This document shows positions 2,722 through 8,595 of a stretch of DNA of 8,595 bases, piece by piece (position 1 is the first letter of the stretch; each line of letters opens with the position of its first letter). Under the pieces are notes generated by a model. It did no database searches, was not told the DNA's origin, and saw only the letters and a list, made by a program, of their open reading frames with translations. The translations under genes were made by a program, and so were the position numbers. Source of the DNA: a virus (lineage: Duplodnaviria > Heunggongvirae > Uroviricota > Caudoviricetes); IMG/VR virus record IMGVR_UViG_2778261121_000002. One strand, written 5' to 3'.

Positions 2722-3372
2722 ATGGCTAACATTATCATTTCTAAAAAATCCATCATTGAAGCTGCTTCCATTGTATCCGATGAACTGCGCGAAAAAGCAG
2801 ATCTGGCAACTCAAACATATAACGAACATTATAAAAATGGTACGCACACTAAAGCAGACAAAGCAAATATGCAAGCTGCGACCACTAAACTTGCTTACTT
2901 CATCAACAACGTTGTAAACGCTGTAGAAGACGAAAAATTATGCTCTGTTTTCTACTATGCGATTAAAGCAAGCAAACAAGCGCCAGAAGTATTTTTCCGT
3001 GATGCTATGACTAATAGTTATTCACTGGAAAAACTGGTTTATCTGGTTAAATCCATTAAAGCTGGTAAATGTGTTTATTCCGTCGCTGATATGTCTGGAT
3101 CTCGTGTATTCGCTTTAATCGATATGATTAACGACGAGATCGACACGTTCACCAATGGCGCTGTTTTCGACTTAATGAATGAAGCTAAAAAAGCGTGTGA
3201 AATTAAATTGGACGTTGGCTATACTCAAGCCAACCAGTTGATCAATCTTTGCGAACGTCTTGGACTTGTTGAAAAAGTCAAAGGAATGGGAAGCGCCAAA
3301 GCTGGTACACAGCAATATCGCTTTATCAAGAATGATTTCTACAATTATTTAGCTGATGCTTTCAAAGCGTAA
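2722..3372 (+). CDS. Hypothetical protein (216 aa), first gene of a three-gene operon
   Basis: RBS taaggat 7 nt upstream of ATG. Long ORF with non-repetitive composition. No motif recognised by eye. Confidence 0.8.
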   Translation: MANIIISKKSIIEAASIVSDELREKADLATQTYNEHYKNGTHTKADKANMQAATTKLAYFINNVVNAVEDEKLCSVFYYAIKASKQAPEVFFRDAMTNSYSLEKLVYLVKSIKAGKCVYSVADMSGSRVFALIDMINDEIDTFTNGAVFDLMNEAKKACEIKLDVGYTQANQLINLCERLGLVEKVKGMGSAKAGTQQYRFIKNDFYNYLADAFKA

Positions 3373-3875: not shown

Positions 3876-3880
3876 AATCG

Positions 3881-3904
3881 AGCGCCCACTATGGGCGCTT
3901 TTTT
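3881..3904 (+). terminator. Rho-independent terminator 1 of the plus-strand operon
   Basis: 8-bp GC-rich stem agcgccca / tgggcgct with a 3-nt loop, then a run of six T. Confidence 0.75.
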
Positions 3905-3925
3905 CGTTTCCAATACTCCCACCAT

Positions 3926-3951
3926 AACGCGCCAATGATGGCGCGTTTTTT
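3926..3951 (+). terminator. Rho-independent terminator 2 (tandem)
   Basis: 9-bp stem aacgcgcca / tggcgcgtt, loop atga, then ttttttatt. Confidence 0.65.
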
Positions 3952-4053
3952 ATTGTCTTTAACTCACTCCAACAACATAAAAATAAGCGCAAAAAATAAC
4001 GCCATAGACGCGCTTTTATATCCTCGCCAGTATATACCCATTACTTAACATAT

Positions 4054-4074
4054 TAACGCGCTTAAAACGCGTTA
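4054..4074. other. Inverted repeat in structured non-coding region
   Basis: taacgcg (4054-4060), 7-nt loop, cgcgtta (4068-4074). Confidence 0.4.
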
Positions 4075-4123
4075 TATTGCGCTATAGAGTATGGTTAATC
4101 ATTGGCTTTTAGTCTTGCTTTAT

Positions 4124-4151
4124 GATCCGCGTTTATTTGTCGGCGCGGATC
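4124..4151. other. 8-bp inverted repeat carrying two GATC sites
   Basis: gatccgcg (4124-4131), 12 nt, cgcggatc (4144-4151). Confidence 0.45.
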
Positions 4152-4205
4152 GGCATTTCGTTTTGTTCCGTATCCGCTCGCGTATTATGTGCGCGTAATT
4201 TTTCA

Positions 4206-4240
4206 CATAATCACACCACTTAATCACGTATGTGATTATG
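4206..4240. promoter_or_regulatory. 9-bp inverted repeat plus a direct TAATCAC copy (operator-like)
   Basis: cataatcac (4206-4214) and gtgattatg (4232-4240), with a third taatcac at 4221-4227 between them. Confidence 0.4.
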
Positions 4241-4364
4241 CTACGAAAGAAATCTGGATGTCTCAGGTGACGAAAGTCATCATAATTTTCCCCGCTCACC
4301 TGTCCGACAACCGCTGGTTGGATTCCACCAGCTTCCCGATGTTTTTTCTACATAAAGGCGAATG

Positions 4365-4486
4365 CAGCCGTTTCCCGAAAAAATCCTGGCCGTTTCCCGT
4401 CGGCTCATGAATACGTTCCTCGCCGTTTCTGAAAATTTCCCTGCGGCAGCTGGTGGCTATAGAGAAAGGGCCGTTTCTGGCCCTCT
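4365..4486. repeat. Iteron array 1: four direct copies of CCGTTTC(C/T)
   Basis: CCG of each copy starts at 4368, 4390, 4423 and 4471 (spacings 22, 33, 48 bp). Copy 3 reads ccgtttctgaaaatttccc. Confidence 0.6.
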
Positions 4487-4492
4487 TCTCAG

Positions 4493-4975
4493 TTACACGC
4501 CATCAAGGATGTGGATGCGGTTGCTTGCGTATACATTCAGCATAAAGTTAGCGCAAAACAGTTTCCATGTATCAACGCCAGCGGTATACGTAATGTTTTT
4601 GCATTTAATTGCATTGTTGGCGATCCGCATCCCCTGCGATACTGCTTCATCGTCGGAAAATTTGAACGACGATTGAGTTTTAATCCAGACAGAAATCTGC
4701 GTAGCGAACTCAATCAGCTTGGACTGGCAGAATCGCCCGGAGCGCACCGGAAAGACGAACGTTCCGAATCCAGAATTTACCACATATGCTTTCTCAAATA
4801 CCCGCGAGTAACGACGATTGCCAATGATGTCGCGTGCAATAATGCATTTTTCTTGTGCTGACAGTTCTACCGTCTCATTGTCGCGCCATGCACCAAGTAC
4901 TCGTTTTTCAATGTCAGAGAACGTTACAGCGATATTGCCATGTGCGGGTGCGTTTACAGTAGCGATAAAATTCAT
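4493..4975 (-). CDS. Hypothetical protein (160 aa)
   Basis: RBS aagga 7 nt upstream of ATG (minus strand); conserved promoter/leader module A upstream. Confidence 0.75.
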   Translation of the reverse strand: MNFIATVNAPAHGNIAVTFSDIEKRVLGAWRDNETVELSAQEKCIIARDIIGNRRYSRVFEKAYVVNSGFGTFVFPVRSGRFCQSKLIEFATQISVWIKTQSSFKFSDDEAVSQGMRIANNAIKCKNITYTAGVDTWKLFCANFMLNVYASNRIHILDGV

Positions 4976-5049
4976 GATTGATTCCTTATCGTAAATAACA
5001 AATTGTTTTCTTGTTGGTGTTAATTATCGTTGTACGAATAAGGCGTCAA
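4976..5049 (-). promoter_or_regulatory. Conserved promoter/leader module A
   Basis: Minus-strand reading: TTGACG, 15 nt, GATAAT, then TAACACCAACAAGAAAACAATTTGTT..., RBS, ATG. The core GATAAT + 10-11 nt + AGAAAACA is shared with modules B, C and D. Confidence 0.6.
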
Positions 5050-5063
5050 AGTGGAAAGTTACG

Positions 5064-5135
5064 GTAGCCGGACGGGAACAGGTGGGTTTGTCGGTTGCCT
5101 AGAGGTAAGAGGTTGGTGTTTTTAGCCTGCGGGGA
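5064..5135. repeat. Dispersed ~70-bp repeat, copy 1
   Basis: cggtagccgg...aggtgggtttgtcggttgcct...agaggttggtgttttt aligns with cggtagcctg...aggtgggtcttttcggtagcct...agaggttggttgttttt at 8246-8310. Confidence 0.5.
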
Positions 5136-5178
5136 ACAGGATGGTCATTTAAGGCCACCAGCATTGGCAGCCTATATA

Positions 5179-5478
5179 TCATTGCTTTCGATGTGCTGCA
5201 ACGAACTCTTTCAACGTTTCTAGCGCATGATAAAGACCGACGATATTCGAGCCGTAGTCGATGCAAACAGGGGAAAGTGATGTCTTCCCGTCGTGCGATG
5301 AATATGCCGATGTGGTAGTTGCAGGGAAATCGTGGCGATAGCAAACCGCAGTTTTTGGGTGTCGCAGATACGCTATCCCTCTTTCAAGATCATAAATTGC
5401 GCGTCGCAGGTCATGCTCCTGCGCTCTGGTCAATTTTGCCATCGTAATACTCTCACTTAATGCGGCAAAGCCAGCCAT
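5179..5478 (-). CDS. Hypothetical protein (99 aa; alternative start at 5442 gives 87 aa)
   Basis: ORF downstream of the 5525-5716 gene on the same strand, probably co-transcribed. The ATG at 5478 has a poor RBS; the in-frame ATG at 5442 is preceded by gagag. Confidence 0.55.
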   Translation of the reverse strand: MAGFAALSESITMAKLTRAQEHDLRRAIYDLERGIAYLRHPKTAVCYRHDFPATTTSAYSSHDGKTSLSPVCIDYGSNIVGLYHALETLKEFVAAHRKQ

Positions 5479-5524
5479 GATTCAAGGAATACATTTTGTG
5501 CTTTTGGGGTAATGGTGAAATCAG

Positions 5525-5716
5525 TCATCGTGCCCCCATCTCCTGCAACTGTGCAACGGTGATATCTGGACACAGCCCGTCGATCCACACCCACACGTCA
5601 ATGATGCTGTCACCGGCTTCAAAATGGTGAAATGCACGCTCAAGCTGCTGATTGTTATCCACAGGCTCATTTGCTAGCTGCGCCCAGATTTGCTGTACTT
5701 GAGTAATAGTTTTCAT
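5525..5716 (-). CDS. Hypothetical small protein (63 aa)
   Basis: RBS agagga 6 nt upstream of ATG; conserved module B directly upstream. Confidence 0.65.
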   Translation of the reverse strand: MKTITQVQQIWAQLANEPVDNNQQLERAFHHFEAGDSIIDVWVWIDGLCPDITVAQLQEMGAR

Positions 5717-5775
5717 CTGCTTTCCTCTTGTTTTCTTGTTGTTGTAATTATCGCAGTGTAGATAAGGTAGAAAAC
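5717..5775 (-). promoter_or_regulatory. Conserved promoter/leader module B
   Basis: Minus-strand reading: TGcGATAAT (extended -10), then TACAACAACAAGAAAACAAGAGGAAAGCAG, ATG. The -35 is weak. Confidence 0.5.
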
Positions 5776-5789
5776 AAATTGTTATCGGG

Positions 5790-5821
5790 TATAAGAAAAT
5801 GGCGCGGTTTACGCGCCATTT
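5790..5821 (-). terminator. Rho-independent terminator after the 5830-6225 gene
   Basis: 10-bp stem aaatggcgcg / cgcgccattt with loop gttta; on the minus strand it is followed by ttttcttat. Confidence 0.65.
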
Positions 5822-5829
5822 AAAGAGGA

Positions 5830-6225
5830 TTAAGCGAATACGCTTTCAGGGATTAAGGTATCAGCAGGAATGCCGGAGGTAATACGCAGACCGTACTGGC
5901 CAATCCAGGTGGTGCTGGTGTTCAGGCTGGAGGCGAATACGGTGTTAACCATATTCATCATGGTTTCAAACACCTCTTCATCAACCTGGCGGAAGTAGTT
6001 CTCGATTTTCAGCAGCAGCGGGTCAGTTGCATCGAGAATGGACTGGTATTGAGTCGCGTACTCGCCGCCGGAGGCATCACCTTTACGCACGATCGTACTG
6101 GCCTGTACTTCGGCACCAGTTTCGGTGTTGTACGTAACAACGGTGATTTTTGCCACATTCTTACCTTCGGCGGTTTCAGAGGCATAGTAAACATCAACTG
6201 TCAGTTTTTCGCGTTTAACGGTCAT
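5830..6225 (-). CDS. Hypothetical protein (131 aa), stand-alone transcription unit
   Basis: RBS ggag 6 nt upstream of ATG; its own near-consensus promoter upstream and terminators on both sides. Confidence 0.8.
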   Translation of the reverse strand: MTVKREKLTVDVYYASETAEGKNVAKITVVTYNTETGAEVQASTIVRKGDASGGEYATQYQSILDATDPLLLKIENYFRQVDEEVFETMMNMVNTVFASSLNTSTTWIGQYGLRITSGIPADTLIPESVFA

Positions 6226-6257
6226 TTCACTCTCCGTAGTGTATTGGTTATTTTTCT

Positions 6258-6286
6258 ATTCTATGATCGTAAGTATGTACTTACAA
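6258..6286 (-). promoter_or_regulatory. Near-consensus sigma70 promoter with embedded palindrome
   Basis: Minus-strand reading: TTGTAA, 17 nt, TAGAAT. The -35 and spacer contain the inverted repeat gtaagta-ca-tacttac (plus 6269-6284). Confidence 0.65.
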
Positions 6287-6287
6287 T

Positions 6288-6317
6288 ACAAAAAAGCCCC
6301 GTAAGGATGGCGGGGCT
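6288..6317 (-). terminator. Rho-independent terminator after the 6352-6663 gene
   Basis: 7-bp stem agccccg / cggggct with a 9-nt loop; on the minus strand it is followed by ttttttgtatt. Confidence 0.65.
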
Positions 6318-6351
6318 GTCGTACGGTCGACTAATTACCACTTGCACATTA

Positions 6352-6663
6352 TCAGGCTATTGCCATCACTGATGCTCTCTGAATCTCTTGCTGGGCCACG
6401 CGGTTAACTTCCATCAAAGCCAGTTCGAGCTGATGTTCCGGCCACATTCTTTGAAATGCCACCCAGCCTTTTCCACGCTGGCGACGAACATTCATTACAT
6501 AACGAGTAAAGGTGTTTTTATCGAAAGACACCGCTGTTTCACGGAACAGACGAATAGAGGTTCCATTGGCAACGATGTCCAGCAAAGTTAATTGAGCAAC
6601 CAGCGCAGGCTTCTCTTTTCTCTTCTGGTCTTTGTCCAGACCAAGAACCAATGATTTTTTCAT
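6352..6663 (-). CDS. Hypothetical protein (104 aa)
   Basis: Start taken at the ATG preceded by RBS acggag. The upstream in-frame ATG at 6693 lies inside conserved module C and lacks an RBS. Confidence 0.7.
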   Translation of the reverse strand: MKKSLVLGLDKDQKRKEKPALVAQLTLLDIVANGTSIRLFRETAVSFDKNTFTRYVMNVRRQRGKGWVAFQRMWPEHQLELALMEVNRVAQQEIQRASVMAIA

Positions 6664-6728
6664 CACAACTCCGTAAACAACTTGTTTTCTCAATGGCGTA
6701 AATAATACCAGTAAGAAAACGGCTACAA
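6664..6728 (-). promoter_or_regulatory. Conserved promoter/leader module C
   Basis: Minus-strand reading: TTGTAG, 15 nt, TGgTATTAT, then TTACGCCATTGAGAAAACAAGTTGTTTACGGAG..., ATG. Confidence 0.55.
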
Positions 6729-6789
6729 AGCATATTGATCAGGTGCATGAGCGATATGCAGGTTCTTCCCTGCGGCTACAGATTAAGTT

Positions 6790-6808
6790 AAGCCAGCAAT
6801 GCTGGCTT
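6790..6808. other. 8-bp stem hairpin just downstream of the 6818-7147 gene
   Basis: aagccagc-aat-gctggctt. No convincing U-tract on the minus strand, so function is uncertain. Confidence 0.35.
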
Positions 6809-6817
6809 TGGTTGTGA

Positions 6818-7147
6818 TTACGCGAATACCTCAAGAAACTCCTGAACGTCCCAATGCTGGACGAGGTGAAGATAGACCTTAGAAATCACGTCATTTTCGC
6901 TATCGCATGTGAAGTAGTACTTCTGGCTGCGGTTGTATGTGTCCACACAAAATTCGCTCATATCCATAAAGTCAGCATCTTCACCCAGGTCGCTGATCAT
7001 CAAAGCAGGTGCGTCATCACGAGTCATCAGTTCCAGCACCCATCTTGAATTGATCAGAGTGGAAGACCAACCTTCTAACTCATAAAACTGATCAAACTCT
7101 TTTTGAGTTAATTTCTTGATTTGGTTGATGTCGATATTTGTAAACAT
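6818..7147 (-). CDS. Hypothetical strongly acidic protein (109 aa)
   Basis: Start taken at the ATG preceded by aagga + 7 nt. The upstream ATG at 7168 lies inside module D. Hand count: 21 Asp/Glu against 8 Lys/Arg. Confidence 0.7.
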   Translation of the reverse strand: MFTNIDINQIKKLTQKEFDQFYELEGWSSTLINSRWVLELMTRDDAPALMISDLGEDADFMDMSEFCVDTYNRSQKYYFTCDSENDVISKVYLHLVQHWDVQEFLEVFA

Positions 7148-7212
7148 AAAGCAATCCTTAAACAACATGTTTTCTTGATGGTGTTATTATCGCAATAACG
7201 CATAGGCGAAAA
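7148..7212 (-). promoter_or_regulatory. Conserved promoter/leader module D
   Basis: Minus-strand reading: TGcGATAAT, then AACACCATCAAGAAAACATGTTGTTTAAGGATTGCTTT, ATG. Confidence 0.55.
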
Positions 7213-7473
7213 AGGATTTTGTTCCGGTAAATGTGGTTTTGGCAGTGAGTTTTCAGGTTCAGTACCGAGTACACTTTTTACATTATTCTGATTTAGTGGC
7301 CGAAAGTGGCTGGTGGCAGAGTAATCCTCTCCCCAAAAACCTACTGAAATCGATTGTGACCCGTTGGCTGTCTGGCACAATTACGCTGTAGCTGGGCATT
7401 CAGAGGGAATCCAGCGGTAAGCAAGTCCGCCTACGTGAGCGCCTCTCTTCTTCCCGCACATTACAGGTGGGTA

Positions 7474-7646
7474 GCCGCAACTTTCCCTCTCGCTATACCG
7501 GTACGCCACCGTTCCTGAAACGGCATCGAGCCTTCTCCCGAAATCCACACAGGCAACTCGACCGTTTCCCTGAAAATCCCCAGCCGTTCCCCGAAGGCAA
7601 CCCAGCCGTTTCTGTAGCGGGATGCAACCTTTTCCCTGTATGGACG
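7474..7646. repeat. Iteron array 2: about seven direct copies of CCGTTTCCC(T)GAAAA-like units with 22-bp phasing
   Basis: Copies begin near 7476, 7509, 7531, 7562, 7584, 7606 and 7628 (spacings 33, 22, 31, 22, 22, 22), e.g. accgtttccctgaaaatcccc, agccgttccccgaaggc, agccgtttctgtagcgg. Confidence 0.65.
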
Positions 7647-7689
7647 AAGGCTGACCGTAGGGGTGTTACGGGGGATAAAATCAGGAGTT

Positions 7690-7724
7690 GAATAAATACG
7701 AAAAAGGAGGCGACACCCCTCCTT
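7690..7724 (-). terminator. Orphan intrinsic terminator on the minus strand
   Basis: 7-bp stem aaggagg / cctcctt with a 7-nt loop (plus 7704-7724); on the minus strand it is followed by tttcgtatttatt. No credible ORF lies upstream of it. Confidence 0.5.
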
Positions 7725-7756
7725 CCCTCCCCACTTATACATACCTGTCTTGTTCG

Positions 7757-7790
7757 CTATACATGTTGTGTTTTCTTCGTGTTTTATCTG
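7757..7790 (-). promoter_or_regulatory. Degenerate fifth copy (module E) of the conserved promoter/leader motif
   Basis: Minus-strand reading: GATAAA-ACACGA-AGAAAACA-CAACATG. It shares the AGAAAACA core but has different spacing and no downstream gene. Confidence 0.3.
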
Positions 7791-8245
7791 TTTCAACCTC
7801 TCTATAGGCGTTAATGCTCACTCCTTCCAGAACGTTCTATACGGCGACTATTTCTGTTGGTGAATTGGGTGTGTTGTTTCCCTGTCGGTGTATGTGGTTT
7901 CGTTAGTTTTGCGGTGGTTCTTCTATGGGGTGTTCTCGTCGTTTTGGTGATTGTTCTTCTCCGTGTATGGAGTAATAGCAGGTGGGCGATTGCTTTCGTT
8001 ATTGTGTTTGAGTTGTTTGACTGGAGTGTGTGGAAGGCTTTTGTAGTTATTCGTGTATTGGGTAATGGCATTTCCCGTGATTGTTATGTTTCGTGTCTTT
8101 TGGGATTGAGAGAAGCCTTGCGGTTACAGGCTTCGTTGGGGTTTCAGCGGTTCAGGTGTTTCTTCGCTGTTTGGGTAATGGCGTGTCGTGGGTATCGCGC
8201 GTATGAATGTTTTCGGATTGCCTGTGAAAGTTAGGTTGGTTGTCC

Positions 8246-8310
8246 GGTAGCCTGGGGAGAAGAGGTGGGTCTTTTCGGTAGCCTGCCATAAAGAGGTTGG
8301 TTGTTTTTGG
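8246..8310. repeat. Dispersed ~70-bp repeat, copy 2 (internal sub-repeat cggtagcctg twice)
   Basis: Aligns with 5064-5135; see copy 1. Confidence 0.5.
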
Positions 8311-8322
8311 AAATAGCATTTG

Positions 8323-8339
8323 TGTTATTTAGTTGTTTT
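8323..8339. repeat. 17-bp direct repeat tgttatttagttgtttt (second copy at 8554-8570)
   Basis: Identical 17-mer at both positions with similar flanks (ttat follows both). Confidence 0.45.
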
Positions 8340-8500
8340 GTTATGCCTGAAAATAAGTTGTTTATACGGTTGTGTAACGCAACGGGAGCGATTTTGAGCG
8401 TGTGTTTTTGTTGGTAGTGTGTTGGGTCGTCTGTGGTGAAAATTGGACGCTGTGGCGCTGTCTGCTGCGTAGAGTTACGGGTATAAGAAATGATGTGTGA

Positions 8501-8545
8501 AAACGTCAATTTTTTAGACCAAATCGGGTGAAAGCGTTGACGTTT
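8501..8545. other. 9-bp inverted repeat aaacgtcaa / ttgacgttt separated by 27 bp
   Basis: Perfect inverted repeat. The loop is too long for a typical terminator, so it is more likely a protein-binding dyad. Confidence 0.4.
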
Positions 8546-8595
8546 CGTTGATCTGTTATTTAGTTGTTTTCTTATTTGTATAAACAACCATAACC

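Follow-up and report, generated by a model that had tools for sequence, protein, structure and literature searches.

Two conserved arrays of phased direct repeats in SSU5-type phage-plasmids, candidate sites of a replication or replication-control module

The locus and the element that carries it

The window analysed here, that is, the whole stretch of 8,595 nucleotides from the IMG/VR virus record IMGVR_UViG_2778261121_000002, contains two arrays of short direct repeats that share the same core and the same orientation: array 1, composed of six iteron-like units (7509..7649, plus strand), and array 2, composed of three (4368..4444, plus strand). An operon of six small genes, encoding proteins of 160, 99, 63, 131, 113 and 116 amino acids (aa), lies between them on the minus strand (4493..7168). 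To the left, a conserved non-coding spacer of about 500 bp (3876..4367) separates array 2 from a cluster of plus-strand genes. One of them, about 1 kb upstream of array 2, encodes a family-specific protein of 216 aa, hereafter p216 (2722..3372, plus strand), which is a candidate for the protein that would bind the arrays.

The window comes from an Escherichia coli phage-plasmid of the SSU5/pHCM2/pLF82 type. In fact, it matches E. coli phage-plasmids of the SSU5/pHCM2 group, for example phage Cyrano (pLF82, OV696614), at 94-96% identity, as it does many IncFIB-typed plasmids of about 110 kb, and it shows weaker similarity to elements of Klebsiella, Enterobacter, Salmonella (pHCM2, SSU5) and Yersinia pestis (pMT1). 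The full 108-kb Cyrano genome, in which the arrays lie at about 95-99 kb, was rebuilt from three pieces and used for genome-wide counts of the repeat core, and 84 family loci, holding 101 distinct arrays, were gathered via the neighbouring p216 gene. The array region alone matches 713 plasmids of PLSDB; the non-coding region around it occurs on plasmids in 240 out of 5426 complete E. coli genomes and is chromosomal in none of the 5426. In LF82, Cyrano has a copy number of 5.5 per cell (PMC9928086). The literature searched contains no description of these arrays.

Geometry and statistics of the repeats

The core of array 1, CC(G/T)TT(T/C)C(C), is 7-9 bp long and starts at 7509, 7531, 7562, 7584, 7606 and 7628, the unit at 7531 being degenerate (CCTTCTC). 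An earlier, sequence-only reading of this DNA had placed about seven copies in strict 22-bp phasing between 7474 and 7646. We count six, positions 7474-7508 holding only a relic (AACTTTCCC), and their steps are 22, 31, 22, 22 and 22 bp, so that the phasing is broken once. The unit had also been described as GAAAA-like: its fixed part is the core of 7-9 bp, while GAAA(A) is found in a minority of units (about 21% of the distinct ones, against 2% in the background).

The phased direct-repeat array at 7474-7646 is real and far beyond chance. Autocorrelation over this interval has its maximum at lag 22 (44% identity, z = 5.1), a value equalled at any lag from 5 to 60 by at most one of 1000 dinucleotide shuffles, and the pattern CCKTTYC-N15-CCKTTYC has four matches in the window and none in 200 shuffles. 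These shuffled-sequence controls, which gave next to nothing comparable, confirm the periodicity that the sequence-only reading had claimed. Tandem Repeats Finder makes no report at array 1 because the units are too degenerate. With several direct repeats phased at about two helical turns, array 1 has one of the features by which iteron origins are recognised.

Array 2, which had been overlooked, starts its units at 4368, 4390 and 4423, in steps of 22 and 33 bp. Its units 1-2 and units 3-4 of array 1 form near-identical 44-bp pairs. The degenerate core has 40 matches in the 108 kb of Cyrano, and they cluster only at the two arrays (six and four matches); moreover, all five same-strand core pairs that lie 18-26 bp apart in this genome are spaced by exactly 22 bp. 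All units are direct repeats on a single strand, with no opposite-strand array among the 101 distinct arrays, and many of them contain a partial dyad, GTTTC-N2-3-GAAA. Three other signals were considered and discarded: a core site upstream of CYRAN_31, beside the helicase gene, is single and compatible with chance; Chi sites occur near both arrays and are common genome-wide (25 in 108 kb); and a CTATAC(C/G)G motif near the arrays shows no enrichment.

Conservation in the phage-plasmid family

The architecture of array 1 recurs unchanged (22, 31, 22, 22, 22 bp) in Cyrano, SSU5, pHCM2 and Enterobacter, and Klebsiella has four copies at 22, 22 and 22 bp. Array 2, with steps of 22 and 33 or 34 bp, is present in Cyrano, SSU5, pHCM2, Enterobacter, Klebsiella and pMT1, the last of which retains only this array, and its first unit, GCCGTTTCCCGAAAA, is invariant in all six aligned lineages, pMT1 included. 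Array 2 was found in nearly all of the 84 family loci and both arrays wherever the locus extends far enough; exactly 22 bp separate the units in 209 of the 302 steps. In orthologous alignments the invariant columns are the cores, and the spacers diverge.

More distant relatives preserve the same arrangement in part. Clusters of CCGTTTCCCGAA occupy both syntenic places in loci whose p216 is 52-61% identical (L010, L204-L208) and also in the far relatives L211-L213, with a GC content of 38% and a p216 of 33-37% identity, the copies being fewer and the spacing changed in both groups. The core persists, therefore, where p216 is only 33-61% identical and GC falls to 38%. The arrays are a genuine conserved cis-element.

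It is barely credible that such an element is an artefact or a by-product, that is, a protein repeat within CYRAN_104 or SSU5_109, a structured RNA or a product of chance. The Cyrano and SSU5 records do carry these two small hypothetical coding sequences (CDSs) over the array, and the minus-strand units do contain GGA motifs, but a period of 22 bp is not divisible by three and neither CDS is conserved. The array is stop-free in three or four of six frames in every relative, and the open frames differ even between the window and Cyrano, which is about 94% identical, with indels that are not multiples of three. PGAP has no annotation over 7170-8595 in the best matches listed out of 240 E. coli plasmids, and CYRAN_103, CYRAN_104 and SSU5_109, the CDSs placed on the array and on the adjoining skewed region, are probably spurious. 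As for RNA, RNAalifold on the minus strand returns a covariation term of +2.56, which is a penalty and supports no conserved structure, and Rfam and tRNA scans find nothing in the array region. Both arrays, in addition, lie downstream of terminators, and the shuffle controls described above were negative. Coding repeats and RNA are effectively excluded as explanations. The view, already expressed from the letters, of a non-coding signal acting at the DNA level is well founded: the cores are invariant and the spacers change, without a conserved frame or a supported RNA structure.

The candidate binding protein p216 and its alternatives

Of all neighbours of the arrays, p216 is the best conserved, and only it and the 131-aa protein of the operon (p131) are still detectable beside them in the far relatives L211-L213. 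An AlphaFold2 model of p216 (predicted local distance difference test score, pLDDT, 79) shows a helical hairpin followed by a predicted C-terminal winged helix, whose predicted recognition helix, TQxNQ, is retained in every lineage, down to homologues of 31-33% identity; its conservation reaches as deep as that of the DNA core. The protein is restricted to the phage-plasmid family (23 representatives among 1.84 billion proteins), and PADLOC and PDB sequence searches give it no function. Its gene (CYRAN_113) is at background level in LB lysogens (LF82 RNA-seq table, PMC9928086), which argues against a role in plasmid maintenance and fits a lytic one. These features make p216 the best candidate for the array-binding protein, and we infer on this ground that it would be the binder.

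A second protein of the locus, the 113-aa product of the operon (p113), folds into a four-stranded sheet and a helix and weakly resembles AP2 and integrase arm-binding domains. As a binder it was downgraded: its basic and tryptophan residues vary where the DNA core does not, and it is undetectable in L211-L213.

The reader of the core might instead belong to the host. A conserved protein of the Enterobacterales, recruited to the arrays for bending, silencing or replication, would account for a core that is invariant across Escherichia, Salmonella, Klebsiella, Enterobacter and Yersinia, also where the neighbouring phage proteins have fallen to about 30% identity. We consider this very unlikely, because core clusters occur nowhere else in the 108-kb element, because the region is confined to plasmids and never found on chromosomes in the 5426 E. 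coli genomes, and because the recognition helix of p216 is as deeply conserved as the core itself. To our knowledge the core matches no consensus of an E. coli regulator, and this also counts against a host protein.

Replication, packaging and partition sites already known in the element

The element has a P1-like RepA/IncFIB replicon, which in Cyrano lies about 35 kb from the arrays, at 60.1-62.3 kb (L005:10150-12350). There, repA is flanked on either side by CTCTCTATAGTGGATA repeats, about 20 in all and spaced by 21 bp, and the locus also has duplicated GATC-rich and DnaA-box-like modules. If the arrays were extra iterons of this same RepA (IncFIB/P1-like), they would form a copy-number locus like incA, and two clusters kilobases apart do recall the incC/incA pair of P1 known from the literature; however, the RepA iterons are CTCTCTATAGTGGATA at 21 bp, unrelated in sequence to the arrays, and no CCGTTTC-type core site exists within the Cyrano RepA locus. 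The chance that RepA reads the arrays is negligible, and this explanation is effectively excluded.

Terminase binding is effectively excluded as well. The units hold CGTTTCC, which is the core heptamer of the lambda cosB R-sites, and terminase-binding sites had been among the options raised from the sequence; they would be sites for the small terminase subunit, of the cosB or pac kind. About 13 kb separate terS from array 1 and about 9 kb from array 2, terL is likewise at a distance of 9-13 kb, TerL is of the T4 type (Terminase_6N), and TerS has neither a Nu1 nor any other Pfam domain; moreover, the repeats are direct only, no site for IHF accompanies them, and there are two separate arrays. 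We rate packaging sites as extremely improbable and the resemblance of the heptamer to cosB is best treated as coincidence.

Partition deserves more attention, since a partition site had also been proposed. In that case a partition adaptor, or the two ParB_N proteins encoded 5-6 kb away, would bind the arrays as centromere-like sites or ParB-type loading sites, and the arrays would serve the segregation or condensation of the element. Several observations agree with this. Two arrays around an operon recall parC1/parC2 of pB171 and parC of R1 as described in the literature, the partial dyad GTTTC-N2-3-GAAA is similar to the parS half-sites GTTTCAC/GTGAAAC, the weak fold matches of p216 include TubR, centromeres are typically insulated from transcription, and CYRAN_119 and CYRAN_120 match the N-terminal domains of Spo0J, ParB and Noc and are conserved in the family. 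On the other hand, no operon of a nucleoside triphosphatase (NTPase) and an adaptor is adjacent to either array, no ParB-type helix-turn-helix is detected in the ParB_N proteins, and all units are direct repeats on one strand. The arrays are kept whatever partition system the plasmid carries, be it the small ParA of Cyrano, encoded at 29.3 kb, or that of pMT1, which is presumably a P1-type parAB, and p216 is unexpressed in lysogens, where partition is needed. A partition site is conceivable and is, in our estimate, quite unlikely.

The genes just mentioned belong to a conserved trio, CYRAN_119-121 (L001:1226-3236), about 5 kb to the left of the window. It consists of two proteins with ParB/Noc-like N-terminal domains, one of them with GEHRWRA instead of the GERRxRA box, followed by a small ABC/SMC-like ATPase, and it is conserved in the family including pMT1.

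Elements that flank the arrays

Terminators stand on the sides from which transcription would enter. Read along the minus strand, array 1 is directly preceded by an intrinsic terminator (7700..7727, minus strand) with a 10-bp stem followed by a T run, conserved in the alignment. Between it and array 1 there is a conserved non-coding block, GACCGnAGGGG...GTTACGGGGGAT-AAAA...TTGAAT (7650..7699, no strand assigned), the most conserved part of the region in the array 1 alignment, the sole part that matches Klebsiella by BLAST and one still recognisable in the far relative L211. On the other side of the operon a terminator-like hairpin (4462..4490, minus strand) follows directly after the stop of the 160-aa gene and precedes array 2; its loop holds an extra CGTTTC core at 4471. 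In pHCM2, Klebsiella and pMT1 a T-rich tail comes after the orthologous hairpin, whereas the copy in the window has a weaker tail and was not called by the terminator scan.

The spacer between the p216 cluster and array 2 (3876..4367) contains two strong plus-strand terminators, at 3880-3900 and 3926-3947. In all, 11 terminator-like hairpins were counted over 3880-4300 against 1.1 expected, and up to five plus-strand hairpins precede array 2. The same spacer includes an inverted repeat at 4123-4152, whose 11-bp stem has GATC in both arms; at 4058 there is also a GCGCTTAAAAC box, which distant relatives have as GCGCTTAGAAT, three times in L211.

The operon between the arrays is variable in gene content and reduced in its minimal form to p160 and p113. 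Searches of Pfam, PHROGs, NCBIfam, PADLOC and PDB sequences assign no function to p160, p131, p113, p116, p99 or p63, and the operon is weakly expressed in lysogens (LF82 RNA-seq, PMC9928086). A sigma-70 consensus scan finds no promoter in 6700-8595; candidates read by hand (TTGAC-N17-TTATAC near 8510-8480 and blocks around 7450-7500) fail at the canonical -10 or are not conserved.

These facts bear on the possibility that the arrays are a transcriptional operator or upstream activator. According to this explanation p216 or p113 would coat array 1 and switch the minus-strand operon, and array 2 would control an unannotated minus-strand transcript or anchor a repression loop. Array 1 is indeed always upstream of the operon, about 300 bp upstream of p113 in the minimal forms, the operon is weakly expressed in lysogens, and, as no consensus sigma-70 promoter was found from array 1 to the operon, transcription may depend on an activator. 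Array 2 fits poorly: it has no downstream gene, lies in a convergent intergenic region behind terminators, and yet is the better conserved of the two arrays and the one that pMT1 retains. Six sites over 140 bp would also be unusual for a simple operator, and p113, whose basic and tryptophan residues vary in distant lineages that keep the core, has no detectable counterpart in L211-L213. Transcriptional control is a real possibility, although a minor one.

Beyond the terminator of array 1, the plus strand of 7800-8595 is G/T-rich, with a GC skew of +0.26 to +0.54 and an AT skew of -0.27 to -0.58, and this stretch continues beyond the window. Its orthologue is the most skewed 800 bp of the 108-kb Cyrano genome. 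A box, GGGTAATGGC, occurs in it at 8060 and 8173, and distant relatives hold four or five copies. CYRAN_103, the CDS drawn on the skewed stretch, is silent in LB RNA-seq (PMC9928086). The corresponding minus strand is C-rich, G-poor and untranslated, and it ends at the terminator 7727-7700; it would suit a Rho-loading barrier or an R-loop element.

Comparison with known repeat systems

IMG/VR was scanned for three cores in 22-bp register, and the scan recovered the SSU5 family together with unrelated lambdoid phages. Six lambdoid contigs (L053, L130, L028, L034, L058 and L085) have three to five units of TGCCGTTTCCATTCGGCA at exactly 22 bp, and these arrays lie inside O-like or DnaD-like initiator genes of 290-375 aa. 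Some of the initiator genes that the scan recovered contain HTH_36, DUF1376 or Phg_2220_C domains. The annotation given to relatives of the TGCCGTTTCC-type genes is replication protein O or replication initiation protein. The TGCCGTTTCCATTCGGCA arrays inside initiator genes are likely origins of replication, so that the geometry and even the core of the arrays studied here are those of phage origin iterons. The correspondence between the phage-plasmid arrays and these lambdoid iterons, found in relatives of mEp390 and of the Providencia phage PSTRCR_117lys, consists of direct units of 22 bp and a near-identical core, TGCCGTTTCC. The differences are equally clear. The lambdoid iterons are inside the initiator gene and the phage-plasmid arrays are intergenic and two in number; the lambdoid units are 18-bp dyads (TGCCG-N8-CGGCA), whereas only a core of 7-9 bp is fixed in the phage-plasmids; and no open reading frame (ORF) of Cyrano or of the window is homologous to the lambdoid initiators (phmmer, E up to 10).

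The oriR/incA system of P1, the ori/crr system of P4 and oriL/oriR of SPP1, as known from the literature, also have two clusters in the same orientation kilobases apart, one beside the gene of the initiator, here a candidate, and the other distal, for which handcuffing or looping is the logical mode. Unlike in these systems, the protein next to the arrays is not a homologue of Rep, alpha or G38P, there are no DnaA boxes, and the element has a P1-like RepA replicon with iterons of its own elsewhere. Among centromeres, parC of R1, parC1/parC2 of pB171 and tubC, the site of TubR, consist of short direct repeats in phase, to which proteins bind cooperatively along one face of the DNA; the likeness here extends to two arrays that flank an operon and to a winged-helix candidate binder, p216, but not to an adjacent ParA, ParM or TubZ gene, and p216 is silent in lysogens. 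The cosB R-sites of lambda, bound by gpNu1, share the heptamer CGTTTCC with the units and differ in the type of terminase, in the presence of cosN and terS nearby, in the IHF site and in the mixed orientation of their repeats, those of the arrays being direct.

A module for replication or its control

We propose, with a probability of about 0.4, that the arrays serve as iteron-type sites for a replicon, or a replication-control module, that does not depend on RepA and is probably lytic. Origin iterons had been one of three options suggested by the sequence-only reading, and they remain the best fit of the three, with the qualification that the arrays are not iterons of the known RepA/IncFIB replicon.

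A sequence-specific protein would read the core CCGTTTC(C) of 7-9 bp. As 22 bp correspond to about two helical turns, its molecules would be aligned on one face of the DNA and could bind cooperatively as an oligomer, and p216 may be the protein that reads both arrays in this way. The succession of p216 gene, terminators, hairpin-rich spacer and array 2 recalls a rep-ori cassette. Array 1 would serve as an auxiliary cluster at a distance, like incA of P1 or crr of P4, and may pair with array 2 by looping, enclosing the small operon, while the terminators on the incoming sides would shield both complexes from transcription. Such a second replicon or control module would act independently of RepA, probably during lytic growth, once the helicase, primase and polymerase of the phage take over. 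The family encodes its own replisome, and no lytic origin is annotated in it. The arrays themselves are established, as are their conservation, their non-coding nature, their insulation by terminators and their separation from the RepA origin and from terS; protein binding, the part of p216 and an outcome at the level of replication or its control should be read as predictions.

Several observations weigh against this proposal. p216 has no detectable homology to Rep, O, DnaD or any Pfam, PHROG or NCBIfam family, and the matches of its fold are modest and generic for winged helices. No conserved DnaA box (TTATCCACA, at most one mismatch) or IHF consensus is found near the arrays in six lineages, the helicase and primase genes of the phage are about 65 kb away, and the cumulative GC skew of Cyrano rises monotonically and gives no origin signal. 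The spacer is not consistently AT-rich: its GC content is 0.37-0.43 in the window and 0.35 in L211, and reaches 0.51-0.52 in pHCM2, Klebsiella and L205. Moreover, array 2 is placed at a point of convergent transcription, the most distant lineages lose the spacing (steps of 24, 26, 10, 12, 7 and 17 bp), and a host protein would account just as well for a core so deeply invariant.

A more specific version of the proposed module can be formulated, and we regard it as doubtful. In it, the arrays, insulated from transcription, and p216 would constitute the lytic origin and replication-mode switch of the SSU5-type phage-plasmids, served by a new family of initiators, built of a helical hairpin and a winged helix and unrelated to Rep, O, DnaD and DnaA. 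The distal cluster would loop out the small early operon, and the adjacent G-poor, untranslated stretch of 0.8 kb would act as a barrier of the Rho type or as an R-loop element.

Neighbouring genes

The left part of the window holds genes that precede p216. An ORF of 271 aa (23-838) has an HNH nuclease region, with weak matches to the HNH part of IscB and to HNH and type IV restriction models of PADLOC; it is present in very few relatives and is therefore probably a mobile or defence insertion. A full-length FljA-like gene (1244-1765), of the "repressor of phase-1 flagellin" family (PF03614, E = 2e-79), is conserved throughout the family and lies upstream of p216, and this gene (CYRAN_114) is expressed in lysogens (LF82 RNA-seq, PMC9928086). 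Between them and p216, two small paralogous ORFs (1769-2065 and 2141-2440) have N-termini like signal peptides and several cysteines; their presence varies among relatives, and they therefore look like morons.

Conclusions

SSU5-type phage-plasmids are frequent in clinical Enterobacteriaceae and include pHCM2 of Salmonella Typhi and pMT1 of Y. pestis. The CDSs drawn over the array region in the Cyrano and SSU5 records are probably not genes. For the switch of these elements from low-copy plasmid replication by RepA to lytic replication with their own replisome, the arrays and p216 provide small targets by which it may be mapped, namely two DNA fragments of about 150 bp and one protein of 216 aa.

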